Assembly: GCA_016748015.1 (NCBI GenBank)
Contig: JAAOMT010000003.1
Coordinates: forward strand, 810,373 to 874,372
Reading direction: 5' to 3'
Length of the DNA stretch: 64,000 nucleotides
From: Geosiphon pyriformis uo1
Taxonomy: Eukaryota > Fungi > Glomeromycota
The notes beneath the pieces were generated by a model that did not search any database, was not told where the DNA came from, and worked only from the letters and a program-made list of their open reading frames with translations. Both the position numbers and the translations under genes were made by a program. Below, in pieces: positions 1 to 50,957 of this stretch. Positions within the stretch are counted from its first letter, which is position 1. Every line of letters begins with the position of its first letter.

Positions 1-942
1 TTGTTAACAATTAGCACACACTATATTCAGTAGATATAAAGAAAAAACCACTTTATATTCTTCTCAAATGTATTAACTATTAATAAAACTTTTTATTTAT
101 AAAAGCTTGGATAGTGCTAGATAAGAACTACTGGACATGTATCTGTTATTATTGCAAACCATGCTATTAAAAACATTTTGGTTATTCAAAACAACAAGGA
201 AAGTAAGACAATGAATCATGTTTTGCTTGCAAAGAAATGCTATTTGATAAAAAAATATGAAACAACATTTCTGGTTAAGAAGAAATGTGTAATACATCAT
301 GTTAATATATGATCTTTATTAATAATTAGATAAGTTAAGAAACACTTTTTAATATTGTATAAAATCAAATACTTTTATGTTTAGACAGTTATCTACACAA
401 TAAAGACAAAATCTGGCAAATAGCAAATGCCAAAGTCAAGAATGCTTTGTCCAATAAAATATTGGCAATTAACTTACCAAAACCAGTTAAAACTATTCTT
501 ATTTCGAATCCAGATGCATTTTTTGATATCTTAGGTAATCCAGAATAATTTTATAAACACTACCAAGACTTAGCACCTACTAGAGAAAAACAAAAACAGT
601 GTTTGAAACAATTAAACACAAAACTGTGTAAATATTGCCTAATTCTCAATGATTTCGATTATTGTAATAATTGTAATCTTATTTACAATCTACTATCATA
701 CATAATCTATTCAATCTCTGAAGAAGAAGAACTAATTAGTGAGTACATATTGGAATCAAAATCAAAAATTAATCACAATTCAAACTCTAACAATAATAAC
801 AACAATGATTCTAACTCTCTTCACTACAGTAATGACAATGATGATTCAAACTTTAATTACAACCCCAAACAATATATTGTATTTTCAGATCTAGCAATGA
901 AGCAAGAACTCAAATAGTTTAATAATAACAATGAAGGTATTA

Positions 943-1337
943 TGCCAAAACATATACATAATATCAATACAGAGTTTGATTTTAAATATCTAAAAAAAAC
1001 TGTCATCAGATTGAAACCATATTTATATACCAGTATAGATCTGAAAATAGTATTGGAAATTTCAGCAACAATAATAGTTTAACTAGCTTTTAGATATAGC
1101 TTAGCAAAAAAAAAGATTAATATTAGAAAAAAAATAATTGATACAAGATATGTAGAAAATATTATTGTAATGCTACAAAATAATTCAGAAAAAAAATACA
1201 TTATTAAACCAAACAAAAAAATAGCACAGGCAATATTTTTGTCTCTGGTTAAAATAGTTTAATTAGTATTAATAAAAAAAAGAGAAGAATTAAGGATCAC
1301 AACCAGAGGAAAAAATGAATTCAGATTAACAGGTAGA
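943..1337 (+). pseudogene. dUTPase domain within Gypsy element A pol (decayed)
   Basis: Reads PKHIHNINTEFDFKY...LAFRYSLAKKKINIRKKIIDTRYVENIIVMLQN...KIAQAIF...TRGKNEFRLTGR; these are the five dUTPase motifs (AGxDL, RSSLA, GIIDxGY, IAQ, RGxxGFGSTG) altered mostly by G>A/C>T changes. Confidence 0.9.
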
Positions 1338-4300
1338 ATAAATATACCAATTAATATAACAGAAAAGAAACCAATTAATAAGAGAGAAATTATTTCTATT
1401 AATTAATCAATTTCTATTCCACTATATGACCAGTATATATTAGTAATAAAGAGAAAAATAAAAGACCAGTCTCAGATATTTGAAGTAAAACCAACTATTT
1501 GTAAATTAGAAAAGATTAGAATTACCAATTTCTATATACCAGCCAAGAACAATAAACACATTAAAATTCTTATTTATAATACAACTAGAAACACCATTAA
1601 AATACCAAGCAGACTTACTATCAAATACTTAAGCACTAAAGTTGAGAACCATCTACCAAACATCATTCCAGATTTTTCACAACTGTATAAATATGTGGAT
1701 ATTATATCACAAACTATTTACAAACAAAAAGAATGTTATTTGCTTCAATTAGAACAACTAAAGCAAATAAACTTGTAAAATTTAGACTTATTTTAACATA
1801 TACAACTCAAAATACTATTTAACAATTTTATTAACATTTTTGTCAGTAAAAATAAATTTGGCAGAACTAACATTATTTAGCTTAAATTAAAACTAAAGAT
1901 GTAATGCCAATAAAACAATAAGTGTACAAAATACTACCAGCAAGCCATAAAATTATTTGACAAAAAATCAACAGAATATTGAACAATGAGTTAATTCAAC
2001 TATCTATAAGTTTATGATTATTACCAGTAGTATTAATCTGAAAAAAGAATGAAAAAATCCACTTTTGTGTAGATTATAGAAAGCTCAACAGTATTACTCG
2101 TGAAAATAGTTATCCAACTCCATAGATTCAAAAATTATTCAATGCATTTGAAGAAAAAAAATAGTTTTCAACATTAAATCTAAACAGTAGTTATTGACAA
2201 ATAGTCATAAAACCAGAGGGTAAAAAAAAAACTGCATTTACTACAAAAAAAAAAATTTTGAATTTAAAATTATGTCTTTTAATTTAACCAATATTTTAGC
2301 CACTTTTCAATAATTCATAGAAATTGTTTATACTAAATTATTATAGAAATTTATAGTAGTCTATCTAGATAACACTAATATGTTCTCAAAAACATTTAAT
2401 AATTATCTATATTATTTTTAGCAAGTGTTTAAGAGATTAAGAAAAGCTGGATTAAAACTGAATGCAAACAAATATTTCTTTGACAAAACAAAACTGAAAT
2501 TTTTGGAACATGTTGTAAGCAAAAACATCATTAAAACAGATCCAAATAAAATTGAAATAGTTAAAAACTTTTCAATATTAACAAATCTTCCAGAATTAAG
2601 AGCATTCTTGGGATTTGCTGAATACTATTACCACTTTATTCAGAACTTCTCCAAACTGGCTCAACCACTTTACTAGCTTTAAGCAAAAAACGTGAAATAT
2701 AAATGAACTGAAACCCAACAAAAAGCTTTAAATATTTTGAGAAAAAAACTTATTTAAGTCTTAGTATTAATTTATTCAGATTACAACAAGTTATTCATTA
2801 TTACTACTAATGTATCAAGTTAAATATTGGGAATCATACTGTCTCAAAAAAGATCAGATGGATAAGAACATTTAGTAATATATGTCAGCAAAAGTTTAAG
2901 TTCAGCTGAAAAGAATTATAGAATTTTAGTATTGGAACACTTAGCTATTTATTAAACTGTTATCAAATAAAAGAAATATTTGAGTTAAAAGTTTAATGTG
3001 TACACTGATCACAAAGAATTAACATCAATTCAAAAACAAAAATTTGAAGATGATTACTATGTAAGATAAAAAATAAAACTATCACTATTCAATTATATAG
3101 TACATTATAAAAAGAGAAAAAAAAATAGAAATGCTGATAATTTGTTACAAATAAAACAAATTTAAAAACATTTTCAACCCAAAAAATATAACAAAAGATA
3201 AACACACAAAATATCAACAACTTTAATATTATATTAATACTCAACAGTTCAAAGAGAAATTATCTTAAAAAAAACAAAACAACATAAAACAACAAGCCAA
3301 ATATTTTATCATTTGCCAAGATATATTATACCAAAAAAACAGAAAATACCTAGATCAGTTATTCAGAATAATCATAAAGCCAAAGAAAAAAACAATACTA
3401 TTTAACATGTATTTAAATCTAACAGCAGAATATTTTTATAAAGAAGCAATTATGAAAAGAATCAAAAAAAGATACTATTAGCTATTTATGTATCCAAATA
3501 TCAAGCAATATGTTCAAAATTATGATGCTTGTCAAAGAAAAAAAGGAATAAAACCCAGTAAACTGCTAAAACCAATCAAAATAGAACAACTATTTGATTG
3601 AATTGGAATTAACTTAGTTGAACTATTAACAATAATCAGTAAAGACAATTGTTATATAGTAGTAACTATAGACTATCTTACAAAATAACCAGAAGTTAAA
3701 ACAATCCAAAAAGCAAATGCAGAATTTGTAGCTGAATTCATTCACTAGAATTTGATTTGTTAATATAGATGCCTAAAAGAATTATTGTCAGATCAAAAAA
3801 CTTACTTTGTAAACAGAACATTAACAAAATTGAGTTAAAGATTTGAAATTAAGAGACTATTACCATCACTATACTATTTATAAACAGACTTAGTTAAAAA
3901 GTTCAACAAAATATTATATAAAGCAATAACCAAGATCAGCCAAAAAAACCAAGATAAATAAGATTTGTTTATACCATTAGTATTATTTGCTTATTAAACA
4001 ATAAAGCAAGATATTATATAAACAACACTATTTGAACTTGTTTATAGTAGAACAATAATATTACCAGTTGAGATAAACATTAATACATATCCAACAAAAC
4101 TAATAACAGAAGCCAATTTCCAAAGAACATTGTTGAAAAAAACATATAAATTAATAAAAACTTTGGAAAACAAAAGATAAAAAGCAGCTAATAACATTCA
4201 AAAGTTACAAAAAAAACAAAAAAAATTACATGATAACCAATTATTAAATAAACCAGTTGAATTTAAGATTGAAAACAAAGTACTTTTACATCATACCAAA

Positions 4301-4542
4301 ACAAAAAAACAATGGAGTAGAAAATTCAATCCCAAATGGGATGAACCATTTCACATTGAAAAAATTCTAGAAAATAGAGCTTATAAACTAAGATAGAACA
4401 ACATAAAAATTGACTAAAACTATATTACAATATAGTATTATTATCTATTAGTAATATTTCACAATTGGGAGTACAACAAATACTTGTTTAACCAGATGAA
4501 ATTCCACAAAATCTAAAACCAATTATAATTATTAATATAAAC

Positions 4543-5243
4543 ATGTCAAATTGATCTACAAAAATAGTATATAAAAACACAGTAGATGTGATAACAGCAA
4601 CAATAAAAGATGAAAATTTCAGATCACATCTACTCAATAGCTCAACAATTATTTCAGACCATAAATCAACAACAATTAGACATGAAAATTGTTATCAACC
4701 ACCAAATAATTTGTTATCAAAACACAACAAGGGAAAAAAAACAGAAATAATCTCATATTAGTGACCACAGAACCTAACAAATATTGGTTAAATAAAATCA
4801 TAGAAAAAGTAAAGAACACTTTTAAAAAAATACCAAAAATAATTTCAACAGAAAAACTAATCAAGGAAAATTAAAAGCTATGAATAGAACAACTTTCAAT
4901 AATATATTATTATTATTAGCTAAAACAAAAGCTAAATTTTCAGAAATTATACATCAATAAATCTAAAAAAATATTCAATCAAAAAATAATACAACAGATT
5001 AAAGAGTTTATTAAAAAAAAGACAAATTCAAAAATATATATCAAAAATATTTACTGACTATATATTATATTTTAAAACTATTCAGAAATACTACTACACT
5101 AAAAAATAGAAACAATAACTGTTAACCAGTGAAAAAGAATAAACAACTCTTAATGTAAAGAAATAAAAAACAGAATTAAACAAACAATATTAGAAAAAGA
5201 AGTAATAAACTTAATTCAAAATGAAAATTTTGACAGAGCTTAA
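4543..5243 (+). pseudogene. Accessory ORF3 of Gypsy element A (after integrase, before PPT), unknown function
   Basis: ATG 4543, TAA 5241-5243; amino-acid blocks shared with element B 6552-7267 (QQLF, MNxTxF..LLLL, ILEKEVINLIQ). Confidence 0.65.
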
Positions 5244-5263
5244 TATTAAAAAAAAGAAGATAA

Positions 5264-6193
5264 TATTATTCATAGAAAAAATACAAAGAAAGAAAGCTAG
5301 AAAAACAAATAAAAAAATAGACCAATAGAAGAATAATACTTAATACATGAGCACAATGTCAAAAAACTATGACATATTGTTCAACAATATGCACAGTACT
5401 AGTGAATTAAGACACACTGCTCAGCAATATAAGCAATGTCAGTAAATTAGAGCATACTGCTTAACAATATAAGTAATATTAGTAAATTAAGACATATTAT
5501 TTAAAAAAATATAAGATCTTATAGAACAAAAAATATGTATATATAGCAAAAATATTAAAAACAGAAAAAACAGAATTCATTTCAGAATTAATATCCTTAA
5601 TTATTAATTATTTCATATCTCTCTTTTCAAAAGATAATTTTTTACAACTTGAAGCAAAATCTAATTACATATCAATAAAATATCTATTATTATTTGAATT
5701 TATATTATTATTATTGATTAAGAAATATTAATTATCTCTATTCTATTAACACTCTATGTTAATAAAATCCAATACTACACTAGAATAATAGTTCTTGATC
5801 ATGGTTATTAACAGAATACTAATTTTCTTTTATTTTATTTTTTTTATTTCTTTGCTTTATTTTTTGCTGTTTACTAAATTAATTCAAGAATTAACATATA
5901 GAGTTATTGATATCAAAAAAAATTAATAAAAGACTCAGAAATAAGAATAGAAATTCGAAAATTGAGGATAGCTTACTAAAAAGAACCAGCTATTAAGTTG
6001 AGAAAAAAATTCACAGAATACACTTTTAGAAAAGTATTAAAACAACTATTGAATCTCTGTCTATTATACAAAGAACTTAACCAAAATCTTCAAATCACTA
6101 AAACTTTTAAATATTACCAATGTCATTAAGCTATTGAGCACCAAGTTACGAGTTTATTATTTGTTTTTACATCTTAAATAATTACCTGTAACA
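5264..6193 (+). repeat. 3' LTR of element A (~930 bp)
   Basis: Starts TATTATT (inferred deaminated TGTTACT) just after purine tract AAAAAAAAGAAGA; ends TGTAACA, forming the terminal inverted repeat; colinear with 7286-8099. Confidence 0.8.
5371..5500 (+). repeat. Degenerate 40-bp tandem repeat (~3.3 copies) in LTR A
   Basis: Units start at 5371, 5411, 5451, 5491; consensus near GACAYACTGCTCARCAATATAAGYAATRTYAGTAAATTAA. Confidence 0.8.
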
Positions 6194-8099
6194 TTATATT
6201 GATATTAAAAAAGTAATATAATAATCAATTATTAGGTAAACAAGCCAAATTCAAAATTGAAGACAAAGTATTTTTACATTATATCAAAGTAAAAAAACAA
6301 TAGAATAGAAAGTTTGACTTCAAATAAAACAGTTTATTTCACATCAAAAAAATTCTTGAAAATATACATATAAATTAAGATAAGACAACAAAATCTTAGT
6401 TAAAATAACATATTGTAATTAACTGAAATTATATTACAATATAGCATCATTATCTATTAATAATATTCTATAACTGAAAGTACAATAAATATTAATTTAA
6501 CCAGATAAAATTTTATAAAATCTGAAACCAATCATAATTATTAACACAAATATGTCAAATTAATCTATCAAAACAGTATATAAAAAACCAACACATGTAA
6601 CAGAAAAAATAAAAATTACAAACAATATTTACTTTTTAATCCAACAATTATTTTAACTTATTAAACATCAAAAACTAAACATAAAAATTACAATTAATCA
6701 ACAAATTATTCAATACAAAGACACAAAAAAAAACCAAAACTCTAATATAAAATACAATATAAAGTACATATAAAGTCTAAAAACATAATAGAAATTATAA
6801 TAGCAAAAGTAAAGATATTATTAAAACTACTAAAGACAATAGTATTATATAAGAAGTTAATAAGAAAAAATTGAAAATAATGAATACAACAATTTTTTAG
6901 AAACTTTTGCTATTACTATTTAGAACAAAAACTTAATATTCAGAACTTATATACAGATAAAATAAGACAAATGTTTAATACAACAATATTGTAACAAATA
7001 AAACAATTTGTAAAAAAAAACAATTTATTTATACAAATACAAACAATATACCAGTTATAAACAGAATTCTAAAACTGTTTAAAAATATTATTATACTCAA
7101 TAATAAATACAGTAACTATTAATCAATTGAGAAAAATTACAAATATTCAATTTAAAAAATTATAAACCAAAATTGTCCAAGTAATTTTAGAAAAAGAAGT
7201 AATAAAATTAATTCAAGAGAGAGATTTAAGAAAGCTAGAAAATTTAAAAGATCTTAATAAAACTTAATATTAAAAAAAAAAATATTATTACTTATAAAAA
7301 TAAGAATTATAATAAGTAGAAAAATAGCCAATAAAAAAGAAATATAGTAAAAAAAAAATTTCAAGATTTTTCTTAAGAAATTGTAGAATTTTAAGATTTT
7401 TTTTAAAAAAATTAAAAAATTTCATATAATACAAATTATATATATATAGTAAAAGTATTAAAAGCAAAAAAAAAACAATTGGCAGACAGAATAATAACTA
7501 GTAATAAGTAATTATTAAATACTTCTTTCTTTAAAAAATAGTTTTTTATAACTTAAAATGAAATTATATTTATATTAATAAAACATTTATTATTATTCAA
7601 TTCATGTTATTATTACTTGATTAAAAAAATCAATCACTTCTATATTATTAACAATATATGTTAATAAAATTTAATACTTAATTACATTAGACCAATAGCT
7701 TTAATTAGAACTATTAATAAAATACTAATTTTCTATTTCTTTTTTTATTTTTTTTTTATTTTTTTTTATTTTGTTTATTTTGTTGTTTACTAATTGATTA
7801 AAAAATTAAGTGTTGAATAATTAACATTAAGAATAGTCTGATAAAAAACCTGTAAAACAAGAATAGAAAACTTAAGAATAGTTTATTAAAAGAGCATAAC
7901 TGCCAAAATAAACCAGCCACTATGTTAAAATTAAAAATTAAAAAAAAATTATTAATTAAATTTCTGTTTATTATACAAAAAACTCAACCAAAATTTTTAC
8001 ACTTTAAAACTTTCAGAAATTACCATTATTAAATAGCAATTAAGTACTAAGTTATGGATTTGTTATTTGTTTTAACATTTTAAATAATTACTTGTAATA
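6194..8099 (+). mobile_element. 3' remnant of related Gypsy element B (integrase C-terminus, ORF3, 3' LTR ~7286-8099)
   Basis: Colinear, diverged copy of ~4210-6193 (FKIEDKVFLHY, ORF3 ATG 6552, LTR start TATTACT 7286, end TGTAATA 8099); truncated on its left by the LTR of element A. Confidence 0.85.
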
Positions 8100-8934
8100 A
8101 TATTAAGAAAAACTTGGCTTTTTTAAAAACATCTAACATATTGTCAATTCTTGGAAAAAGATAAGTATCTTTAATTGTTACACTATTTAATTGTTAATAG
8201 TTAACACAAAATCTGAATTTTTTTTTGACAAAAATTATTGATAAAATCTAAAGAGTTCTTAATAATTAAATAAATCTATTATTAAGTATTTATTGAACAT
8301 TTTTTTTAATGAATTAATAATTAACTGGTAATACTTAATAGGCCTGTTGTTATTTTAGAATAGTGTTTTCAGTGTAAATTTAATGCCATATAATATTGGT
8401 TTTTTCAAGATTGTTGTTATTTTTTGTAAATATATTAGCATATTTTGTGATTAACTATTTTAATTGTCTTTGTTATTAAGATTTTAAGAAACTTATGTTA
8501 ATTCAAAAAAGCTTTTCTTTAATAATATAATAGTTTTTAATAGTAAAAAGAATATTTGGATTTGAAAATAATAGATATTTTACAATTTTAATAAAATTTG
8601 AAATAATCTGTAAGATTTTATTTTGAAAAATGTTACTATATATAATTTTAATTTCTAATTTATTTAAAAAAGCAATAGAATAGTTGTTAAAGTTGTAAAA
8701 AATAACCTGGAATTTTTTTATTTCTTTTGAAATATAAATGTTTAGGATTAAAATTTTGTGTTTCAAACAAATTTGTTTATTTGATTCAAAAATTTGTTAA
8801 GTGATAGTAGATTTTTGACAAGTATAAATTTTGTGATGTTTTTCAAAAGATGAGATAATAATTGGTTAAAGAAGTCGAAAATTCTGGTGAGATTCATTTT
8901 GTACATTAAAAACTATATTTATTAAAACTGTAAA

Positions 8935-9365
8935 TTATCTAGTTGAACTAAAACTTTAAGTTTCTTTGTTGCTTTTGCCTAATTGCTCTTTTTAATTAAC
9001 TGGTTGTAAATTTAAAATGTTAATTAAGAGTAGATATATTGCTTAAGCAATCTTTTTAGTATGCTTAATTTTGTATGGTTTTTTGGTTTCATTTTGTAGC
9101 ATAATTATGATATTTTCTGTGTATTCTGCATCAATAATTTTTTTTACATATTAATTTTTTTGCTGGCCAGGAATAATTAAGAAACAATTTGAATCATTAT
9201 TCTCAGTAGAATTTTAAAAACAATTTTAAAGTTGATTTTTGTTAGAGACTTTGATTAGAAAACTAAGATATCTTTGTCTGAATATTATAAATTATATTTA
9301 GCATTAATTTCGTGAATTTTTTTTGACTTTATTTCTTGTTTATTGTTGTCAAAGTATTTGAGTTG
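8935..9365 (-). pseudogene. dUTPase domain within Gypsy element C (decayed)
   Basis: KKIHEINAKYNL*Y...FLASKKIN..KKIIDAEYTENIIIMLQNETKKPYKIKHTKKIA*AIYLLLI...ET*SFSSTR; same position as in element A but diverged sequence. Confidence 0.85.
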
Positions 9366-12300
9366 TATGGCAAGCTAATTTTTAATCAGATAAATTAGAG
9401 TTGTTATAATTTTTTTTTTTGGCTTAGATTTTCTAAATTCGATTTTATACTCATTATTTTTACTGAACAAAGAGATGTTAAAAACATAGCATTCTGAACA
9501 CTATTAGTTATCACAAGGTGTAACATATTTTTTACATAACAAAATTTTTATTTACTCTAATTATTAAATTTAAGTTTCTTTGGTCAAGTATATGTGACTT
9601 GTAATTTAGTTATATATATTACTTCATTTTTATAATTGTATTCTATAATTTCGAAAATATATTTAATATACTTAGCTTTTTTTATCTGTGATGTCTTCTT
9701 GAATTCTTTTATTGATTAGAATTATAACCAATTTATAAATTATCTTAGCATTATATAAATAGTAATAGAATTTGTTTAAAACACTATTGTATACTGTATT
9801 AAAAAAAGTTTCTTTGTGGACTTTTTCTAAGATCTAAAGAACATATTAACAGGTTTAATTATACACTTCTTCTTTTATTGCAATATTAATCTAGTTGTAT
9901 TTTTCTAATAATAGTTTTTTATATGTAAAACAAGAAGTGTTGTCCTATTTTCTATTTTATTTGGAATATTCAAATTATTCTTAATAATATGCTTTATAGT
10001 AATAACAAATATAAGTTTTATATTCTTTTTCAGATAATATACAAGTTTTCATAGATGAAAGCTTTTTGTTATCAACTATTAATTTTTTCAAAAATTTTCT
10101 GTTTCATTTTTTCAGTTTAATTGGATATTAATTCAAAAGCCATGTAAGTTTCAGTAATTGGTTTTTTTTTTCTTCTTTAAATTCGAATCCAAAAGCTTTT
10201 TCTGACTGTTTATTGAAAATATCACAAATAATAAGTACTTAGATATATTGTTTTTGGTATAAAATTTTGAGTTTTTGGGTTTTTTAATTTAGGTTTGTAT
10301 TGGTCTTAAGAAGCTAATTATTTCTAATAAGAGGTTAGTATTAGAGTACATCTATAATAAAAACTTTAATTAGAATAGTAATTCCATTAATTGTAAATAA
10401 AAAGTTGTTAATTTTTTTAACTAAAATTTTCTTTATATTATCAACTATAACAATAATTGTTTAAGCAGATCTATTAATATTTTATTTAAGTTGTTATATT
10501 AACTAATAAATAATAATGCTTTTGGCAAATCTATTATTTAAAATTAATCAAATTTGTTTTTTTATACTTTAGCTTTTATGTACAAAGCAGTAATTGCTTT
10601 TTGTTTTGTAACTGTTATATTATTAAGCAAAAATAATAATTCATTTGCTTTGAATTTAAAAGAAAAAATATTAGAAAGATTGGTATTTTTGGCAATTTTT
10701 GCTGATAGAATAATGTGATTATTGTTAGAAAAATTTTGTCTTAATGTTATAGTTTTACTTTCAAAAAATGCAGTTTAATAAAAATATAATTCTTTAGGCA
10801 TTGTTAAATAACTAAGTTAAGTGTGAAAATGATTATGTCTTTGTTAAACTTAGTTTTAAAAAACCAATTAATTGTTAAAATTAAATCTATTGTTGTTTAT
10901 TGCCAATTAGTTTTGAGATACAAATTGGTTTTGTTGAACTAATCTTTAAACAAGTACTTAATATTGCTAAACTGGTAGTTGTGGATATTATTATTGAATT
11001 AGTTATGAAACAGATTAATAGTAATTGTTTTAATATTAAGGTTTTAATAAATAATAAGTTGGAGATTAATAATAGAATTGCTATGATTAAGAATAATATT
11101 AATTATTTCTTAATTGTTGATCTTTTTGTATTTTTTGGCAATCTTAATTTTAGTGTTCTGAAATTCTATAATAGTAATAGCTTTGAGATTGGTTGTTTGA
11201 TAATAATAAATAGTTATTGTGATTGTATTATTAAGGTAACCAATATTTTTGTTATTGGTTAGTAAAATAGTTTTCAATTTTTTTGGTCAGTTGGTTAATC
11301 TTTTTTTAGCTATTAAGCTGGCTTTTTTAATGAAATTAACAAGTTTTATAAAGTTGGCTTTTTTTATAGTTATTTTATAGTTTTTTATATGTCAAATGGC
11401 TATAGCTAAATTTGTTGGTGCATGAAAACAAACTTTTTTGATTAATTTATCTTTTAATTTAATAATAAATTGGTTCAAAATTTGAGCATTAGAATAATAG
11501 TTATTGGTTTCTAATTGTTGAATTTTTTGGAAAAATTTGTTAAACATTTCGAAATAGGTCATAACAAATTTAGAAAGTTCTTGTTTGATAGTTTGAAATT
11601 GATTTTAGAGTATAATAAAGATGTTGTTATTGGTAAATTGTTTTAAAAAAACATTTTTGAATGCTTACTAGTTTTCAAAGAATTTGTTCAAGTTTTTAAA
11701 TCATTTTTTAGCAGTTTCTTGAAGAAAATATAAGATTGTTTTTAATATTTTAGCTGCATTTTATCTATTTGTACCTTCTGTTTTTGAAACTTTGTCAAGC
11801 CATTCTTGAAAACTGGTATTAGTATTTTCTTTTGTGAATTCAATAATTTTTGTAATATAAGTAGTTGCTATTTTTTTTGTATTTTTGTTTTTAGTAGTTT
11901 TTTTCTCAGTAAATTCAAAAATGTTTTTGTTGTTATCAAAGTAGTTACTTTGGTTTTTAGCTAAAAAATCAAGAAGCTTTGTGCTGATAAAAACTTGTTT
12001 AGGCTGTTGTATTAGGCTTTTTGGTAATATAAAGTTTTCTGATCTTAAAAAACAATTAAGTATTAAATTTAGTGTCTAAATTTGTATAAATAAAGCAGAA
12101 AATAGTGTAATTAAAAGTGGTAGTTTAGAACTAGTTCTTTGTTTAGGTATTTATAAATGTTAAAAACTTGTTTTTGGTATATTGGGTGTTGTTTGAACTG
12201 ATTATGTGTTTTTTTTTGCCATTTTTGCTTGTTTTAAGCTTAAATTTAAGTTCAAAAATAAATTGTGAATCAACAGAGTATTTTTCTTTGCAAAATTTGA

Positions 12301-12832
12301 TAATATTATAATCAAGTTCTTTAAAATAAATAGCATAATTGTTAGCACTAATATTCTTTAGATTTTTGTTTAAGTAATAAATAAGATTTTCAAGGAGTTT
12401 TTATTTGATTTCTATGATATTATAATTTCCAAACAGATAATTGTTGATTTAGTTTTTAATGTATTGGAAAAATGTTTTCTTAAAAGCTGTGATTTTATCT
12501 TGGATTTTAAATTAACTGATAATACTTTAAAGTTATTATGTTTAATATAATTACTACTTTAAAGTTGTTGTTATTATATTATTTCTATAAAAAAAGTTAG
12601 TGAACTTCTGATAACTGAATTTTATCTTCAAATTATTTCCTATAATTTGAATTACTGGACTTATAAATAAAATGGCTAATTCTGTATTAGTTACTATATA
12701 TAAATACTTTATAGTAAAAGTCAATTTTTTTCCAGAAATTGCTTATCTAGAAACTTATTAAAAATGTGTAGTTATTTTGCTGTAAAAGTTAACTTTTTTA
12801 CAGAAATCTTGTTTATAGACTATCCTAATAAT

Positions 12833-13454
12833 TATTATAAAAAAATATAAAAAATATAAAAAAAATAGACTTTTGTTTTAAAATTAATAGTTAATTAATT
12901 TCAAAATATTAGTTGGTTTTTGGAAATTTGCAAGTAAAATAATGGAAATTGGGTTTTTAAAAATATTTAATATTTTTATTTCTTTTGATATATAAAGAAT
13001 AATTAATTTTAATTAAGATAATTCTGAGTAAAATAATTCTAAAATAAAATTTTTTTTTTTTTGAAAAAAAACTCTTCTTTTATACAATTTGTTATAATAC
13101 TAGTTTATAAACTTGAAATTTTTTTTTGTTATAATTTCAATAAACTAAAAATATATTTTAACAAATTATATATTATTTTAATAAACTATTAATTATTTCA
13201 GTAAACTATTTATTATTTTAGCAAATTTTTACAAATTTCGACAAATTCTTGAATATTATATAGTTTAGAGTATTATGTAATTTAATTATTCTAATTTCTA
13301 TTATACAAATTGGATTATTAATTAAATAGTAATATTTAATAATTTAATTAAATAATAAATAATAATTGAAATAATATTAATATATATTAATTAATAATAG
13401 AAATTAGTAGAATAATTTCATGCTAATTTAATGGCTAAAATTTTATTGATAACA
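12833..13454 (-). repeat. 5' LTR of element C (~620 bp) with 20-bp tandem repeats at ~13140-13250
   Basis: Termini TATTATAA (12833) and GATAACA (13454); similar to 47791-48356, including the 20-bp periodic AAACTR..T.A.TTT block. Confidence 0.6.
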
Positions 13455-14210
13455 GTATTTTTGGGTTTGTATATGTATTTTATAAAGACTATATATAAGA
13501 AATTGCCAGTTGCTATTAAAAAAAAACTTTATAATAGGAGTTATTCTAGTGTTTGTGTTTAATATATAATTAAATAGAATTTTTTGATCATATTTTTACT
13601 TATTTAAATGATGCTGGTTTTCATAAAAATGTTATGTGAAAGATAATATCTTATTGAAAAGCTTTGGTTGGTGCTAAAATGTCTTTAATATTAGTAATAA
13701 TTCAAGACTTTTTGTCAAGTTTGTTAAATATTGATTTATATAAGATTATTAATAAAAGTTTTGTTTTAAGAAGCTGGTATAAAAAAACAGTAATAGTGTT
13801 TAAAAATAAAAAAAAACTGCTTTTATTATGATACAGTTTGTTTGTAAGTTTGTTGAACATCACAAAATAGTATTGTGAATTCTTAGATCTAAATTTAGGA
13901 CAAATATAGAGAGTAGTGGTTTGATTAATAATAAAAATGTGGTTTCAGAATTGTTGTATTTTATGTTATCTCATTTGTCAAATAATATTGTTTGTTTGTT
14001 TAAAGTTAATAAGACATTTGTAATTGGTTTCAGTTTTTGTAAATTTTGTTTGCTTTTTCTGGTTTGAATAGTAATGTTTCTATTTAGATAAATATATAAT
14101 GTGGTCTTAACTGATCTAAATAACTGATCATATGTAAAAAATACATAAGTTATATTTAGTTAGAGACTTTTAATTTGTTTTTTTGTACTAGATAATAATT
14201 AGGCTCTATT

Positions 14211-14255
<45 letters not shown>
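13455..14255 (+). mobile_element. 3' end of a decayed LINE-like (non-LTR) retrotransposon with a (TAA)n tail
   Basis: LYMYFIKTIYKKLPVAIKKKLYNRSYSSVC..EFFDHIFTY resembles the C-terminal CCHC-knuckle region of LINE ORF2 proteins; followed by a short 3' UTR and (TAA)~14 at 14213-14253; left side cut by LTR C. Confidence 0.7.
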
Positions 14256-14258
<3 letters not shown>

Positions 14259-15529
14259 TATTATTGTATATTGTTAAAAACTATTTATATGTTTTTAAAT
14301 TATATATTTTTTTTTGTGGTTTTTTATTTAAGTAACAATGGCTAAATTATTTTTTAAAAATTATTTAAAATATTTAAAGTAAAATTAATATAAATTTTTT
14401 AAATATAAACTAAATTTTCATTTTAATCTAATTTTATAATAGTTTTTGTTAACTTGTTTATAAGCAATAGTAATTTAATAATTAAACAAATTATTATACC
14501 AATTAAAACTAAAAATTAAATTATTTAACTTTTTATTAATAAAAATATAATACAAATCTTTTTTTATGTTTTTAAAATTGTGTTTTTAACACACAGAATT
14601 TTAGTTAATATATAATGTAAATTTAGTTTCTTTTATTTTTTAAATATTGTGCTGTGTTTTATTTTATTTTTATTAAAATTATTATTTAAGACACTAAACA
14701 ATAATAATATTATAAATAACAATTCTTTAAATTAAACTAGTTATTAGAAAACAAAATAACAAGCCCAATTTAGCATTTAAGAAAGTTTATTTTGCTTTTA
14801 AATTCATAATTGTATTTAACTATAAACTGTACTTAATATTAATAAAAAGTAGATTTTCCAAATATTTTTTATAAAATAAAACAATTAATTATTGATTCTA
14901 ACAATAAAGGATTTAATTTAATTAATTTATTTATTTATAGATTTAAAAGTAGCATCTCCTCCGATCATTTTAATCACAAATTTATAATTTACGAGTTTAG
15001 TCAAACTTTTGAACCTTTAAACTTTCTAAAAAATCACTTCCATAAAAATCCCATGATACATTTCAAGAGCTGGAGTAAAAAACAAATTTCTATTGTTTTT
15101 TTTTTGTCTAAAACCAAATTTTCTCAAAACACGACAAATATAATGCTATAATAATTGAACAAAAACCGAATGTTTTGTGATGTGATTACAGAGATCAAAT
15201 GACATGAGAATTAAGAAATGCCCGCCAAACTCCCATAATTTATGATAATTTACAAAGAAAAAAGAGAAACTAATAAGAAATAGGAGATTGTTTGTTTGAG
15301 TGTTTTCGTCCAAGAAACTTTATGATAACTTGATTTTACCTTAGACTAGAATTTCGATTTTGGGAGCGATAAAGAGTTAGAAATGCACAAAAAATATCTA
15401 CAATTAAAAGCTATTTAACAAAATATAATATAAATTTGAGTAATATATATGATAATTTATAAAATATAATAATGATACTCTATAATTTTGCCCAACAGGA
15501 ATGTCCTTTTTTTTGGCGTTGTAAATGTT

Positions 15530-18500
15530 CTATAAGACTTGGGATCGCCGACCCTCTAGCGCCTCAAGCGCACCTCTGCGCGAACTTTGGACTGCATTGC
15601 TACCCCGCCTTTCTTGTTTTATTCTATTTTTTGCCATCACGGAGTGTGTTGTTGAGTTGGCTAATCGATCAAACACATCGCCCGTTGGCGTAGCGCATCT
15701 GCTATGCGAATGATGACTGCACATGCTAGTCACCGACATGTTATCGTCATCTTCAGGTGAGGAACGTCCGTAATTCCAAGATGATACTTTTGATAAATCT
15801 CTGGACTCACGTTGACCCATCGAAGAGTATGAACGTTTAACTTCGCCGCCAAAATACCCAGAATCTCTAGGTTGCTCATGATCGCCGCCAGCGTAGAAAC
15901 CAAGGCTTGTGTTACTATTTCTTTGAGCTTCACGTGAAAAAGATCCACGATGAGGATTATCCCTCGGTTGTTGACAACGTTCATTTGGTGGAGTTTTGGG
16001 TGATTGATCGGACCAATGCACATGTTCATTTGATGAATTAGAAAATTTTTTGAGGTGTCCTCTTCTACCCGATCCTTTATTACTATAAGTATCAAAGTAA
16101 GCATTGGATTAGCATTTTTGTCAATAAAATGTCCAGAAAAATGGAAACGATAATAGAAAGTTAAATAAGTTTACCTATAATCAGAATCAGAACTGCTATT
16201 TCTCGAGTGACCATGAATATCCGTAGTCGTGCGTCTTAGCAATGCTTCACGTTGTAACGAGTCCCGAGGGGATTGAGCTGAAGTGGGTGATGCAGGTTGA
16301 AGATCTCCACTTTTCCTATGGCGTAATGGCATGTTTAACCAACCTTGTGGTATCGGTGGTTTTGGGGATAAATTTACGGGTGACGAAGCGTAAGCTACAT
16401 CTTGTTCAATCGAGTTTCCAAAGTAAGAATTTCTTTTCGATTTCTCAGAAGAATTAAAATTAGTTCGAACGGAAAGTGGTGAAGGATCGACCATAGGACC
16501 AGGTTGTTGTAAAGAGTTTTCGTAGATCCGATCAAACAAAGAAAGAGTGTCGTTGGCGTCATTTTCAACGTCATTAAGTTCCAACTCAAAGCCTGAAGGT
16601 GAAACTGGACTGGGGGTTCTGCCCCCATATTGAAGTTCACTTTCAAGTTCTTTATTTTTTTTCTCATACATCACGGTTGTCAGTACCGCAGCTCGGCGCA
16701 TTGACAGCAAGGTCTTTCTCAACTCATTGATCGTCTTTTCTTGATGTGCCATTGTCATTTGACGAGACCATTCGCCGGTACGAAGATTAACGACATCTTT
16801 GAAGAAGGATTCAAGCACAGTTTGTTGTTCAAATGAATCCAAATTTCGTAATATTTTCATTGCCGTATCATAGGCAGCCTCGGGAGTTGCATTCGGTGGT
16901 AACGAGAATGACAATTTTTTCCTGTCACCAGATGATTTCCTTTTCTTCTTGGAATCTTTACCATCCTCACATTTATCGCTATCATCTGAAGATCTTCGTT
17001 GAGAGACGATATCGTGAGGCACATAGGAGTTCGCATCCGCGACGGGTTCACCGGTTAGGGTATTACTGGCGATGTTCGCCGCAGCTTCGGCATTCAAGGC
17101 CTTGATTCTGGCGTTAATATAAATTATTTCAGAATTAATCATTTCAATCTTGTCGTCCAAATTTTGTGCCAGAGCTTGTTGAGTGTAATTAACATTTCCA
17201 TTGGAATCAAAATTATCGGCAATGATTCTTTCACGTTCCGACAAGCTTTCTTGTTTTTCAATCGCAAGATTATCACGTTTCTTGAGCAATTCATCAATCA
17301 ATGCCATTGATTGTTTGCCCGTAATGTATTGTGCGATAGCTTGATCGAGAACCTTCTTTTTCTCATTACCATCAGCGAATATTTCGGCCTGAATGGTAGA
17401 AAGGTCATCAGAAGTGCGGCGGCTTGGTGGTTGATCTTTGGTATCGGTCTCAGGTGCAACCTTGTTCGCCCGCTTACCACGGAATGCTTTGGCGATAGAT
17501 CTTGGGGTAGTGGTACGTTTCAATAATCCCATGACGGACTTGAGTTTATTGTTCGTTTGTAGAACTTCTTTGTTTCTCTTTTCAAGAACAAGTTTTTGAA
17601 CTTCATGAGCACGTTCAATACGTTTCTTTTCTTGCTGTGCGGCCTTTTCTTTACGACGAAGGTTTTGAATTTCACGTTCATTACGTTCTGTCATTTCACG
17701 AATACGTTCAGCCTCGTCCTTCATGCGTTTAATCAAATTTAATTTTTCCGCTTTGTGTTGCTCAAGTTGAATCTTCATGTTCTTGAGCATAGACTCATTT
17801 TGATTTTTAGTTAACTGACTGGTTTGGGTCGCTTCATTATATCTACGACGTAAATCACCGATTTCACCAATCAATTTCTTCATCTTGTGCTCGTAACGAG
17901 CTTTCAGCTCTGAAAGAATAGATGTCTTATCACGTGTGCTAACACCACCGACACGTTTCATAGCAATGTCTCTTTCTCGTTGCAATTGAATCAAAGATTG
18001 TTGCATTAGATCCACTTTTTGTTCGTACTGTGTACGCATCAAAGTGAACTCTTGTTCGGCTCTCTCTAATTGCGAAACGAGTTGTTCTTTAACCGCAATA
18101 TCGGCTTGAATTTGATGCAACATACGAGTAAGAGTGAGCGCATTTTGTTGCTGAGAAGAATAGCCGGTACTATTTTGCGACGATTTCGTGGACCCTGGTG
18201 AAATTGGGTGATCCGAGAAGCTGACTGATCGACTCGAATTGGAGGTCCGTCGTGGTGGTTGTTGAGCCTGACCACTAGAGCCAGGTTCTTCCCAGGCTGG
18301 AACTTCAATAGTTTGGATATCACTGAAAGAGACGCTACTTGATCGGCGGTTTTCATTTTGAAGGTGATTTCGCATCATTTGATCAATATAACTTTCACTC
18401 TTCGTTGAAGAAGGAGTCTTAATTAATTGACACAAAACTGGATCGTCGTGCATAGATCCACCATTTTTCAAGAACAATAAACCTTGTTTGATTTGTTCTT

Positions 18501-21500
18501 TGGCTTTTTCTAGTGTATCCCTCGCACTGCGACGCCTTAGTCTACGAGTAACCTTAAAGGCACTATCTTCACCCCATTGATCCCCTTCTCCACCTGCTTC
18601 ATCATGATTTTTTTCGTCATTATCTTGCTCATCATCATCATCATCATCATCATCGTTGTCAGGTTGGTTTGCGTAATGAGCGAAGATATTTTTGGCTTCT
18701 TCCAAATTAGCTGGTTTCATAACACCGTGAGAAGGTAGAGCGGCAGGGAAGACTTGTTGAGAAGACTGTCCTTGTTGCTGATTTTCTTGATCATCCAAAA
18801 TCTGGAAATGACCCTCAGCACGAGATGAAGAGCCTTTTTTACCTTTTGTCCGTTTGGTCTTCTTGCCTTTCCGAATTTTTTTGTCAGGGCTTTGAGTTCT
18901 TGGGGGTTCATCATCGCTCATGTGCTGAATGTGAGGAGATTCTTCCAAGAAAGAAATGTGACCCTTTTCACGATTAGAATTAGCAGTTGCCATGGAAGAT
19001 TTTCTTCGGTTCATTAATCCTCCAGAACCGGTTTGACATTGAAGTTCAAGATTTTGCTTCTTGAGATCGTTAATTTCTTGAAGATATTTCTCAATCATTG
19101 GATTTAAATGTACCGTGGAATTATTTTGGCTTTGGCCATTCATTTTTCTTTCGGTCAATAAATGTTCTCGTTCGGCTTGTACTTGAGAAAGTTCTTGTTC
19201 AAGTTTGATAGATTTCATCTTTTCTTGACCAACTAAACAGCGCAGTTCATTAATTTGCTCTTCGTAAACACGTTTTGCCTCTTCATCGAGACCACCGGCT
19301 CGAAGTGATGTAATCTCCATTTGGAGTCGATTGATTTTGTTTCGTAGTTGGTTGACTTCGACCGAAGACCCACCATAGGTTTCATTAACGCTGACCTTGT
19401 TCTTGATATTACGAGCTCGATTGGCGTATTTAAGGGTGTTGAGTGTCTCCATAAAGTTGGAGTCAGCCGGTGATATACATGCCAACATTAAAGTTTGACT
19501 AAGGAAAAGGGGTGTAAAGGATATGTTCAAGTCAGAATTGAATGGTATCTAATCGTATGACAAACTATATACGCAAATCAAAGTATTACCTGTTACCACC
19601 CAATGAATCTTGTAGGAGTCGAGTTAATTTTGAATCTCGATAAGGGACATGAGTTACTTTTCGTGATTCGTCACCAAGAGCGCTAATCACATTGCCCAAA
19701 GCCAAGAGACCACCATTAATGGCAATACCTTCTTTGGCTCGATCACCAACTGCATTTGTTCTCTTTAATCTTTCAGAGCCGGCTAAATCGACAAAGTGAA
19801 ATTTCGAGGTAATTTTTGAAGTTAATGGTTTATTTTTGTTCTTTTTAGTGACAGGTTGCTGAGCAACTTGTGGATTATTTTCTTTATCCGCATCCTCATC
19901 AATTCTATTTTGTCGTAGTATCACGGAGAATATGGCATGTGATCGGGATGACACCAAGTTCATGTCGGTGGAAGCTACTGTTCGACATAATGAACCTTTT
20001 TGCAGTTGCCTTTTGAAAAGAAATTTTGGCATTAAAAATAAATATTTGGATTAGAGCATGAAAGTCTAACAACTTTACTCACTCTAATAGTTCATCGGGT
20101 GAATTAACTGGCACTTCTTTAACGCCAGCCCAATATATTTGTCCGTTTACATCTTCCCTAATCATTAATTCATTCTTTCCTTTTTTATGATCGCCATGAG
20201 TTTGTGGATTTAAGAGATCGATCAAGTCTTCGTTGTATAGCTCGAGGAAGGACACCAATACTTCATATGCGAATGCTGGATTCTTTTCTTTCCTTGCTTC
20301 GAGTCCTTCGAATAATTTATAGATGGCCCGTGGAACAATGCCTAAAGTAGAGGGCGCAATAAAATTAAATGTATAAATTTGGTTAGTCAAATTAATGATC
20401 GACGATACAGGGTTACACCGGACACGCCCGAGCTGCATAATGATGTGAAATGCACAAAAATCCCAAAAGGTGTTTTTGAAACGAGCGAACGTTGCGGCCG
20501 AATAAATCCTAACTTGAGAATGCTAGAATTTCTTTAACGTACCTAAATGTTCTGGTGGAATATTTGAACCGTCTAGGGCTGTACCCATGCTATAGGTTTT
20601 ACCACTACCCGTTTGTCTAAAAGAGACATGAAATTTAGGTTTTATTCCTGAAAAGGAAAACAAAGATAATTTTACACTCAGAATACCAAAATGACATACC
20701 CATAGGCTAATATTGTTGTGTTATATCTATTTTTGAAGTAGAAACAATGAGAGTAACAACAGAAAAAAATTAGAGTTATGAAGCGGGGATAAAAGAAAAT
20801 AGGCAGTGCGTCAGAGTGTGCGGATATTGTAATGCTTCGGACAATGATTTTTGTAACCAAATTTTGGTAAGTCGACCAAAGTCGGACAATCTTATATCAT
20901 GTGTCAGAAGAGTTTTATTTGTAAGCCAATGGTCGATATTCTCTTTTAAAAAGATTCGCATCTAGCACACACACACACACACACACACATCCTACAGCCT
21001 GCAAAGAAAATGTTTGATGATTGACAAGATAATGTGAGCTAGTCACACCTACTTACCCTTCAATCAACTTTTCAACCATTGGTCTGGCACACTCCTCGAA
21101 CACGTCTTCCTGCTCAGTGTCCGATGAAAATACATGGTCGAAGGTGAAAGATCGGTCAGTGCCAATAAGAATTTGTGGTGCGTCCGGTATAAACGTGATG
21201 CATTCACTGCAATTTTGGAGTGTTTCTTTATTGTTTAAGGGTCGGACTCGAAGAGCGACTCTGTATTTTTAAAAGTTTTTTTAAAATTTGAAAGATGTTG
21301 TGTTTTCGAGTCGCCGAGAAGGATATAGAGAAAGATAAAAGATTTAAAGAAAATAAAACAATTAGTAAACATGATTAGATGTTATTTATTGGGAAGAAAA
21401 AAATGGAGAAAAGTTTCGTGTGTAAGAAATTTGTTATTTTTCGTTATTAATTTAATAAATGTGGGACTGAAGATTGGCAAATACGCTGTATTAAAGGATG

Positions 21501-47201: not shown

Positions 47202-47790
47202 ATCGCTATTTTCGTAAAATATTGTTGAAAGGCGTTTCTCTTATTCACAAAAAATGTGCATATTTATTGCCTGCAGTTTCAGGAAAAAAAAGATTTTTTT
47301 TTTTTCAAGTCTTACAAATAAAAAATATAATTCAGGTTTCATATTATTTTTAGTAACATTTTTTTGTGTAATTTATTTATTTATATCAAAAAATTTGGGT
47401 TTTAATAATAATAAATTAAAAATAAAAATAAATTTTAACAAATATTTATTATTAAACAGATTTTAAGTTTTAATTGAAACAGATTTAAAAAATAAACAAA
47501 TCAATAAATGAATTAATAAATAAATAAATAAATAAATTTTTCAATTAAATAAATATTCATATTTTATCATTTAACTTAAATAAATATTAAAATAATTCCA
47601 AAAAATTAAAAAACCAAATTAAAAAATACATGAAAAAGAATTTAAAAAAAATTATTTACTAATTTATGTTATTAATATTTAAAAATATATTTATTATTTG
47701 AATTTTTTGATTTATTGTTTTTTATTGAATCAATATTAAATAATATATTACTCACTTAATTTATTAAATAATTGATTTAAAATGTAATTT

Positions 47791-48356
47791 TGTTATAAAT
47801 TTTAAGTTTTTTTTTAAATTAAAAAATTACAATACTTCCTTATTTTGGGTTTAGTAATTTAAATTAAAATTAATGTATCTGAAATTAGTAGCTAAAAAAT
47901 TGTGAAGTTATTAGAAATTTTTTTGTTAAGTATAATTTGGTTAAAAAAAATTGTTTTAATGAATTATATTTATTTCAAGCATAAAAATTATTATTCTGTT
48001 GTAAAATACATTTTTTTAAAGAACTTAAGCTTTTTTTATACAACTTTACATAGGTTTTAGCAAAATTATACAAATTTCACTTTGAACTGTTTGAATTTTA
48101 TTTAAACTGTTTGAAATTTGACTAAACTACTTGAAATTCTAGTGAAACTGTTTAAATTAACTGAATTTTTATTTGTATTACTTGAAATTTTTTAAAGTGA
48201 TACATAATCTAATTATAATATTTTAATTATACTTGTAAATTCATGTAAAAATCTGAAACATTGTATTATTAATAATTGAATAATTAATATTAGATTCATA
48301 ATAAAAATTACGAATAATTTTATGATAATTTTTGAACTAAATTTTAATTAGTAACA
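47791..48356 (-). mobile_element. Probable solo LTR related to element C
   Basis: Termini TGTTAT...GTAACA; right end resembles 13400-13454; contains 20-bp tandem repeats (TAAACTGTTTGAAATTT..) at ~48080-48160 like LTR C. No clear target-site duplication. Confidence 0.6.
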
Positions 48357-48979
48357 ATAGTTATAGTTTAATTGAAAAATTGGTATAATAAACAAAAAGT
48401 CTGTTGGTTAATATATATATATATATAATAAACGCTTTGCATAATATTTTTATAAATAAAATATTTCTATCATTTATTTATAGTAATAATTTAATTATAT
48501 TTCTACAGTTATATTGTTTTATACTGGGTTTATAGTAATTATTTTTAATATATTTTACTGTTAAAAAAATTTTTCTTTTCCCGTATTTAATTAATTATAT
48601 ATTTAGTTACTAATGTTATGTACTTGACAATTTATTATTATTTTAATTAGTTATTAACTTGATTATTACCCAAATAATTAATTTAATAATTATTAAATAT
48701 ATAAATAAACATTCTAAAGTTGTAAAAAATATATTTAATTATTTAAGTACCAATAACACAATTTATTTTTTTTGAACTACGTTTTTGCTAGTAGATGATT
48801 TATTAAAAAAACAAAATAATATTTGGTATTAAATTTTAAAAGCACAAATTAAAATAAAAATTGTAATTGTGAAACTAATTACATTAATTGAATTTCTTAT
48901 TCATTTAATTTGCTTCTTAAGTATAAATTCTCTTACTTATTTTTATTTTTTTATACAATAACTATTTTCTTTGCTATTT

Positions 48980-49460
48980 ATTAGCATATTATTTCAATTT
49001 GTAACCATATGTTGCTAATAGTAAAAAAAAGCTTTATAATAAAAATTACATATTTGTTTGCTGTGTAGACATTAACACAAAAGTTGGCATTAAAGTACTT
49101 GTTAAATATTTGGTATTTAATGATTGAAACATACCAATATAATTCTATAATTCTTCAAAATTTAAAAAAGTTAAAGTTTTTGTATACAAATATAGAAATA
49201 TAAACATGTACACAACTTTGGCCAAAAAATTTGTATATTAAATTAATAAGATTTTTTAAAAATGCTAAAATAGCAGAAGTTAAAATTGCAAATTTAGTTC
49301 AAAATTTTATGATAATGTATTATAAAAGAATTTGAATTCCTTTAACTAAAATGAAATTGAACTTGAAAAAGAGTAATTTGATTGTTAATAACAATTTTGT
49401 GTTAATATGTTAAGTTTGTAGATTTTGGACAAATGTAATTTATAGGATTGAAAAAACTGT
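48980..49460 (+). mobile_element. Decayed LINE ORF2 C-terminal fragment
   Basis: VANSKKKLYNKNYIFVCC and FKNAKIAEVKIANLVQNF...RI*I resemble the LINE relic at 13455-14100; CpG-free, AT-rich. Confidence 0.45.
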
Positions 49461-50299
49461 TAACTAAATTACATTAAACCATATATAAAACAGACAATTA
49501 AATCCAAAATTAGCATATAGCTGCTAATAATAAATAGTTACAAAATTTTGCTAAAAACATTTTTAAATTTCAATTTGTAAAATTATTAAAAACTATAATA
49601 CAATATATTTATAGAAAATATTTTATTAAAAAGCATGAAATCAAAGCAAATTTTAAGGAAACTATAATTAATAAAAATTATAATTAAAAATGAACCCTTT
49701 ATAGAATTTTGAGAAAGTTTAAAACTTTCAAATAAAAAAATCTGAATAACGAAACTTTCATAATGTGAAATCTTTCGGAATTATGATTTTTCTGCAAACA
49801 TAATATCGATACGTTTGCCGCGAACTAACTGTTTATATATATAAACCCGTAGCCGTACAACCATTCGTTCAATACAGATTTCCATAAAATAGAAAGCTTT
49901 CTTTCCTTAAAATTGGGAAAATATTGCCTTATAATATTCAAGCCGGAAATCAGTTCCTTATTTTCTGTTAAAGAAGCAATGTTTTGAAAGATATTATTCA
50001 ACAGATTTATTTTTTTTAGATTTTATGTATGAAAATTTTCAGCGTTTCCATTCCCACCCACAATATCTAAGGGAAAATATTAAAGAAAACTTCAAGATAA
50101 TATGATTCTTAAATATATGGAAAACTATAAGAGGGTTGATTGTCTTTGAAAAGCAGGATAAATATTTTATATATTTAGGGTTCCAGTAAAATAGATGAAG
50201 ATTCTTTTATTGTAATTTCATCAGAAGAATCACAATAAATCATATTCAGAAAATCTATAGGAGGAAAGAATCCCTTATAATAGATGGAACTTCAATCTT

Positions 50300-50957
50300 T
50301 CAAAAGCACCTATTCTTCATATCAATCATGCCATTCAAAAGGTCCTTGAATTCTGCTTTCCAGTATGGATACCCACGCTGAATCGCCTTTCGATACCAAA
50401 ATAAAGCCTTATGCACATCTCGTTCCGTCCCCCGACAATACCTGTGACATCTTGCTAAATCTAATTGCGCAGTGGCAACACCACTTTTAGCAGATCTTAT
50501 ATACCACAAAAATGACTTTCTCTTGTCAATCTTCGTCCCAATACCTTTTCGATAACAATATGCAACATCACATGCCCCACACGGACATCCCCCCTCGGCT
50601 GATTTCAATGTCCAATAAAAGGCTATATTTAAATCCTTCTCAATCCCAATTCCTCCTCGATAATACCATCCAAGTTGACTTTGCCCATACAAAGTCCCCG
50701 GATTGTGCCGACACTTTATACCAGCCTATCGCTTTGTGATGAATTCGTGTGCCTACTCCATGGCGATAGCAGAATCCAAGTAGACAAGCGTATTCGGGAT
50801 TGGATGGTGCAATTTTCAAAAGTTGTTTAAAGATCTGTTCTGCTTCCATGTTTTTGGAATTTAGCCATTTATGTATTTCTCCATACAAGTTCCTATTAAT
50901 GAGGCCTGGATCAGCTGCTGAAGTGAATATTTTTAATAATTCTTCCATTAATTTCAT
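50300..50957 (-). pseudogene. Sel1-repeat protein, frameshifted paralogue of 54618-55256
   Basis: ORFs 50640-50957 and 50300-50692 together match the 212-aa paralogue; +1 base at GGGGACTTTGTAT versus GGGGATTTGTAT (~50693) and -1 base near the stop. Assembly error cannot be excluded. Confidence 0.85.

Follow-up and report, generated by a model that had tools for sequence, protein, structure and literature searches.

How did retrotransposons in the fungus Geosiphon pyriformis lose nearly all of their CpG dinucleotides, and was a genome defense at work? We addressed this question in a stretch of 64,000 nucleotides (contig JAAOMT010000003.1, positions 810,373 to 874,372; hereafter the window), whose first 14,940 nucleotides carry decayed Ty3/Gypsy elements. 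An initial annotation, made from the letters alone, had read this block as the product of C>T and G>A hypermutation in all sequence contexts, resembling RIP (repeat-induced point mutation) and confined to transposons. We find that the hypermutation in 1–14940 is real. It is RIP-like in outcome but fails the comparison with RIP in context, processivity, and treatment of a duplication.

Base composition sets the block apart. It contains exactly 13 CpG, the number that had been counted by eye, where local base composition predicts 148.6 (observed/expected ratio 0.085, GC 0.20). The remaining 49 kb of the window has 951 CpG at a GC of 0.29 (ratio 0.90). The right edge is sharp: CpG comes back at 14962, beside a kinesin gene, and the ratio is 0.88–1.32 per kb over 15001–21000. 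Fourteen AT-rich 500-bp bins between 20 and 46.5 kb hold 72 CpG versus 73.8 expected. Thus, low GC alone does not explain the loss of CpG, and a general AT drift, named at the outset as the competing outcome, is not seen in these unique bins. Within the window, CpG depletion is limited to transposon DNA when the block is compared with the gene and AT-rich controls. The proposed confinement to transposons therefore stands for the C>T excess; for 12700–14940, where a Pfam scan of the three minus frames gave no match, we infer a transposon origin. Judged against the customary cut-offs, the RIP indices of the block are unremarkable (TpA/ApT 1.03; substrate index (CpA+TpG)/(ApC+GpT) 1.11).

To obtain a substitution spectrum by context, we compared sister copies of the high-copy family (element 1, Table 1) as proteins. 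The dUTPase region was represented by 120 copies and the integrase end by 58 of 61, with P0008, P0003, and P0044 excluded, giving 178 in total. At least 15 residues were present in 418 columns, of which 354 were kept and 64 dropped; in a kept column, at least 93% of the residues can be derived from one codon by C>T or G>A. There, 4703 of 4985 changed residues need C>T/G>A only. At the 170 sites that cannot be CpG, cytosines were mutated in 2676 of 15044 site-observations: 1190/5385 at CpC (22%), 254/1635 at CpA (16%), 294/2232 at CpT (13%), and 938/5792 at sites that are either CpC or CpT. By comparison, A:T>G:C changes were found in 57/32216 (0.18%) and transversions in 44/46434 from G/C and 68/59843 from A/T, that is, 112/106277 type-observations or ∼0.1% per type. 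The rate of non-CpG C>T is 111-fold that of A:T>G:C and 186-fold that of transversions, and it is still 85-fold in the worst case, when all unexplained residues are taken as transversions. Transversions comparable in number to transitions would have pointed elsewhere; they are ∼100-fold rarer than non-CpG C>T.

CpG is hit hardest. Of 317 Arg codons at four sites, 53 retain an intact CpG, which corresponds to 0.89 per C versus 0.20 for non-CpG, or a ∼4.6-fold higher rate, and to ∼400–850-fold over each transversion type. The context order is CpG > CpC > CpA > CpT, and CHH sites (H, any base but G) are mutated at 18.9% and CHG sites at 14.2%. The base on the 5′ side also matters: the median site rate is 0.21 after a pyrimidine versus 0.095 after a purine (p 3e-8). 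A hand-built count of the integrase alone agrees with the combined spectrum. The second family (element 2; 15 copies, unfiltered) shows 231 C>T/G>A versus 95 other changes, with 30/188 at CpT, 27/171 at CpC, and 3/45 at CpA. We also looked at DNA level in assembled contigs, whose variant shares are depth-weighted and inform on the kind of change, not on rates. All 14 variants at or above 2% in 4256–4355 are transitions, CpA, CpC, and CpT sites included, and so are 2209 of 2899 variable places in 1–4700. Changes on both strands, and not in CpG contexts only but also in CpA, CpC, and CpT, are thus borne out as first proposed.

The copies in the window carry the same signature at 2.4 times the load of the gene models. 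In element 1, 106 of 120 changed residues need C>T/G>A only, and 62 of 73 are so explained in element 2; the claim that motifs changed 'almost only' by transitions goes in the right direction but is overstated as worded. The motif RKKIIDTR is present at 1125–1148, as reported, where the most frequent residue per column in 120 sister copies gives R-G-G-I-I-D-A-G. YLDN lies in the reverse transcriptase (RT) frame at 2362–2373; its presumed ancestral form is YLDD, as in the initial annotation. NNR, proposed to be a former DSG, is also present in the sequence. The word 'saturation' does not fit: the window copy has changes at 71 of the 170 non-CpG cytosines that were scored, and of the Gln and Trp codons said to have become stops, 3/22 and 0/2 scored, respectively, have done so. 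Every scored copy is damaged, the least-hit one at 6 of 106 sites. Conserved dUTPase glycines are changed at ∼40–55%, which argues that the changes came after insertion, free of selection.

How were these changes laid down? A round of RIP makes numerous changes at once, grouped on a single strand. In the scored sister copies, there is no linkage between mutated sites (mean r 0.03, |r|>0.4 in 4 of 3555 pairs), neighboring sites show no positive correlation that would indicate local clustering, and CC>TT doubles show no tandem excess (128 seen versus 146.6 expected). Site rates recur across three subfamilies (rho 0.56–0.63). Given the load, the strands are balanced without overdispersion (85.7 versus 88.6 ± 10.4). 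Load per copy covers a range of about five-fold (0.41–1.93). Copies with more G>A also carry more C>T (r 0.53), and the heavier the load of C>T, the more changes of other kinds there are (rho 0.26, p 0.004), a roughly clock-like behavior. We simulated strand-exclusive rounds on a basis of 33.6 scored mutations per copy: chi2 fell from 3425 with 1 round to 125 with 64 rounds, versus the observed 85.7. Sixty-four or fewer such rounds per copy are therefore excluded, and only 128 or more, with fewer than 0.3 scored mutation each, fit the data.

RIP responds to any duplication of sufficient length and similarity, above all when the copies are linked. A host-gene duplication linked to the block was spared. 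Two copies of a Sel1 gene, 1.5 kb long, 88% identical, and 4.3 kb apart, have a CpG ratio of 0.8 and keep 25 of 36 CpG in both copies; they differ by 62 transitions and 32 transversions, an ordinary spectrum, in what is one case and a partly coding one under selection. Because the changes are unlinked, unclustered, and balanced between strands and the Sel1 pair is spared, the process looks like single hits building up on transposon DNA over time and not like bursts from repeat pairing. The RIP-like mode that had been proposed is not supported.

The sister copies were selected by their likeness to the window. Yet sites at which the window is ancestral are still mutated in 1288 of 8654 observations (14.9%), and load is flat across match ranks (0.175–0.187), showing that the choice of matches does not drive the result. 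We detected no spill-over from nearby CpG (rho 0.004), and local GC had no influence either (rho -0.07). The polarity of the changes, from ancestral C or G, is supported by a relative, P0260, which has an unbroken frame of 1064 amino acids with protease, dUTPase, and RT and no sign of this decay. Among 83 informative sites it is ancestral at 75 and derived at 8, with 29 other. P0260 may stem from a young copy or from a related host that lacks the mutator.

Any explanation has to account for a spectrum of this size over background, made of changes that arose independently after insertion, are balanced between the strands, and are confined to the transposon DNA of the window. We think it probable that methylation of transposons in all contexts, by an enzyme of the DIM-2/DNMT1 class, is coupled to deamination site by site. 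A methyltransferase of this class would mark transposon heterochromatin in CG, CHG, and CHH. The marked cytosines would be deaminated, probably with the help of an enzyme and presumably during vegetative growth, and each copy would gain single, independent C-to-T changes after insertion, on both strands and in all contexts. Targeting would go through chromatin state, not through repeat pairing, and the retrotransposon family would be inactivated for good. More tentatively, Geosiphon, and perhaps Mucoromycota more widely, may possess an enzyme-driven, non-processive, all-context cytosine mutator aimed at transposon chromatin, which would work without sex or repeat pairing and leave a YC/CpC/CHH signature of its own (Y, pyrimidine), invisible to RIP indices.

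The published background is compatible with such an enzyme. The clade of arbuscular mycorrhizal fungi (AMF) is stated to have DNMT1, DNMT2, DNMT5, DIM-2, and RID (PMC8298701), and Rhizophagus transposons have high CG methylation in an assay of CG alone (PMC8647823); PMC13443276 likewise assayed CpG only. DIM-2 places methyl groups on cytosine in every CpN context, and Mucoromycota have a homologue of it, namely in Phycomyces (PMC13297926, PMC7862722). The initial annotation had reasoned that ordinary decay of 5-methylcytosine is CpG-biased, a premise too narrow in view of the action of DIM-2 on all CpN (PMC13297926) and of Zymoseptoria Dim2 on non-CpG sites (PMC8016269), even if the process in Geosiphon is still biased toward CpG. 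Its call for a different mutational defense holds insofar as the pattern goes beyond age and AT drift; mutation coupled to methylation, in a variant form, is likelier than a defense of an altogether different kind.

Several observations weigh against methylation-coupled mutation as we propose it. Whole paralogue pairs in the window have transition/transversion ratios of 1.07–1.51, under the control's 1.94, and are transition-rich in conserved parts only (25:2 and 34:8, versus 91:96 further on); this whole-pair comparison is confounded by divergence that accrued while the elements were active. Most contexts were read off amino-acid replacements in gene models, and such models leave out stop codons and favor mildly damaged copies. 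When all 418 columns are counted, A:T>G:C changes rise to 692/40245 and the ratio drops to 11-fold. Of the 18 dropped split columns that we tested, most form linked blocks by subfamily, with r as high as 0.97, and thus were probably inherited among active elements. Sites with a 5′ pyrimidine show a residual coding-strand excess of G>A (median 0.22 versus 0.14, p 0.03), and stop-forming sites are low in the contigs (3.9%, 3.5%, and under 2%). Finally, the context order differs from that of known enzymes: the Dim2 mutator of Zymoseptoria tritici acts at CpA in >98% of cases and spares CpG (PMC8016269), and a CpT preference is listed for DIM-2 (PMC13297926), whereas in Geosiphon CpG ranks first and none of CpC, CpA, and CpT escapes mutation.

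Could RIP itself, dependent on RID but relaxed in context, have acted in a cryptic sexual cycle, pairing and mutating repeats over very many weak rounds? The effect is of RIP-like size (85–186-fold over background), both strands are mutated, and RID is among the enzymes attributed to the AMF clade (PMC8298701). However, the simulation leaves room only for 128 or more rounds, the changes are unclustered, the linked 1.5-kb Sel1 duplication escaped (a single, partly coding example), the leading contexts are CpG and CpC instead of CpA, and the indices stay at 1.03 and 1.11. RID is moreover listed for Ascomycota only in PMC13297926, at odds with PMC8298701. We consider this explanation unlikely. 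Passive hydrolytic deamination of all-context 5-methylcytosine, over long times, against a low background of replication errors and without enzyme help, differs from the reading that we favor in the deamination step only. Independent, clock-like, strand-balanced, and CpG-led changes are what it predicts. A fully methylated mammalian CpG has a rate raised by tens-fold; the 85–186-fold at non-CpG and ∼400–850-fold at CpG seen here exceed this level and render a purely passive process rather improbable.

An AID/APOBEC-like or other deaminase with a 5′-pyrimidine preference, acting on transposon DNA without methylation, would fit the known context preferences of such enzymes: cytosines after a pyrimidine are favored, CpC comes first among the non-CpG contexts, and the coding strand has a mild excess of G>A. 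That CpG is the strongest target speaks against it, as do the lack of clusters and a load that varies continuously with other changes. Unlike in cDNA editing, both strands are hit, at equal rates after a 5′ purine (0.107 versus 0.091, p 0.67). This makes such a deaminase a doubtful candidate. Ordinary old transposons that underwent CpG decay and general AT drift, or an artefact of sequencing or amplification, are highly improbable: the low ratios of whole paralogue pairs and the AT-rich genome would agree with decay, but transversions and A:T>G:C changes are far too rare, AT-rich unique bins keep CpG, and contigs at depths of 62 and 66 are identical to the window over 344 and 368 bases (possibly from its own source sample). 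Ultraviolet damage, grouped with these, was rejected: CC>TT is not in excess, and changes reach 10–17% at ACA, GCA, and RCA sites, which are not dipyrimidines.

The methylation-coupled reading places Geosiphon among known systems without matching any of them. The Dim2 mitotic mutator of Zymoseptoria tritici is alike in its transposon-confined non-CG C>T changes; it raises mitotic mutation more than tenfold, with >95% C>T, and needs no sex (PMC8016269). The gradual single-hit pattern in Geosiphon fits this mitotic mode, in which the enzyme would here be a presumed one. RIP in Neurospora and other Ascomycota, which requires RID and takes place ahead of meiosis, is alike in its massive C:G>T:A changes on both strands of repeats, in sparing genes, and in inactivating transposons, but Geosiphon shows no CpA preference, negative indices, no strand-processive tracts, and a spared linked duplication. 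CpG hypermutation of fungal transposons (CpG in Basidiomycota, CpG and CpA in Tuber melanosporum), ascribed to methylation of the DNMT1/Masc2 class plus deamination (PMC4352252), is likewise transposon-confined with CpG as the main target. Geosiphon differs from such decay in that non-CpG sites, CpC and CHH included, are mutated at 13–22%, ∼100-fold over background; PMC4352252 lists CpG, CpA, and CpT signatures, and 'CpC' is absent from its main text.

In Gigaspora margarita no RIP signatures are reported (PMC8647823). Repeat-directed signatures are described as occurring almost only in ascomycetes, with five Glomeromycetes scored no_rip (PMC12543289, S14); Geosiphon and Ambispora have no match in supplement files 1–12 of that paper. 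In the literature searched, a scope outside which lie the Geosiphon genome paper, Clutterbuck 2017 ('lower fungi'), and Bewick 2019, no account of such a pattern came up, whether for Geosiphon or for the remaining Glomeromycotina.

Element 1 belongs to a very high-copy family: 24474 contigs of run X1 fall on 1–4700, with a summed depth of 1e3–2.5e5 versus ∼60 for single contigs. Runs X2 and X3 gave 2 and 0 matching contigs and are evidence neither way. The named relatives are Geosiphon pyriformis gene models (8/9 and 52/52 in two integrase searches, 9/10 in look-ups), in agreement with the glomeromycete-like genome that had been surmised. The dUTPase region has 328 matches, and among the matches listed 120 of 120 are Geosiphon models. 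No relative turned up when metagenomes were scanned with an alignment of the integrase. Hundreds of Geosiphon 'hypothetical proteins' (G9A89 models) are hypermutated retrotransposon fragments, some of them chimeric, and the gene count of Geosiphon is likely inflated by such relics. Long terminal repeat (LTR) elements are given as 41.2% of G. pyriformis in PMC11952901, where 'RIP' and 'repeat-induced' are absent from the main text.

The features of the window are collected in Table 1. The Ty3/Gypsy domain order of RT, RNase H, and integrase is found in element 1 by Pfam, and P0319, a sister protein of element 2, has Retrotrans_gag, Ty3_capsid, zf-CCHC, and dUTPase matches. The RT/RNase H relic contains stops plus a frameshift near 2260. 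The 5′ end of element 1 lies outside the window, and two copies have their probable 3′ LTRs at 5470–6197 and 7374–8103. A dUTPase is present in each of the Gypsy families (933–1790 and 8900–9551), and it may or may not bear on how a deaminating host deals with uracil.

Table 1. Positions of the transposon relics and host-gene controls in the window
Feature	Position	Strand	Evidence or remark
CpG-erased AT-rich block	1–14940	.	13 CpG, GC 0.20
Decayed Ty3/Gypsy element 1, high-copy family	103–5246	+	tblastn map, Pfam
dUTPase-bearing region of element 1	933–1790	+	PF00692, E 2.4e-10
RT + RNase H relic of element 1	1901–3150	+	PF00078 (below cut-off), PF17917, PF17919
Integrase relic of element 1	3380–4400	+	PF17921
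Repeat, probable LTR (by position)	5470–6197	+	71% identical to 7374–8103
Partial related-subfamily copy: integrase end, downstream region, probable LTR	6184–8103	+	sequence comparison, tblastn map
Decayed Ty3/Gypsy element 2, second family: gag, dUTPase region, RT start	8098–12664	-	
CpG-free AT-rich sequence	12700–14940	.	single CpG at 13239
Kinesin gene, control	15530–20522	-	PF00225
Sel1-gene duplication, control	49777–55549	-	copies 49777–51233 and 54026–55549

Other parts of the window have features of their own. Many long trinucleotide microsatellites (AAT, TTC, ATC) lie amid CpG-normal sequence at 22200–44200. A second AT-rich block at 47250–49750 (GC 0.11–0.20, with 0–3 CpG per 500 bp up to 49750 except in the last bin) is probably another decayed element. 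Three short tandem Sel1-repeat genes occupy the minus strand at 49777–57187, the frame of the first copy being split. Between the two Sel1 copies lies a broken transposase resembling those of Mutator-like elements (51480–53640, plus strand; motifs by eye, no fitting Pfam match). At its left end CpG is partly kept at GC 0.38–0.40; further on CpG is mostly gone at GC 0.31–0.34, and then 0–1 CpG per 500 bp remain at GC 0.24–0.26. A graded methylation domain would give such a gradient.

Taken together, these results describe retrotransposons destroyed by C>T changes at RIP-like strength in a lineage reported to be without RIP, with a signature that the standard indices miss. They open a long-standing question to experiment: does any fungus outside Ascomycota have a mitotic mutator that is coupled to a methyltransferase, and can transposons be mutated to death in fungi for which no sex is known? 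If mutation is coupled to methylation, CHH and CHG methylation should be present and biased toward CpC and toward a 5′ pyrimidine. Transposon ages taken from divergence in the Geosiphon genome would be inflated many-fold, and hundreds of annotated Geosiphon 'genes' are mutated transposon relics (one dUTPase region has 328 matches, those listed being all from Geosiphon). If the broader proposal is true, such a mutator would be a RIP-equivalent genome defense outside Dikarya.

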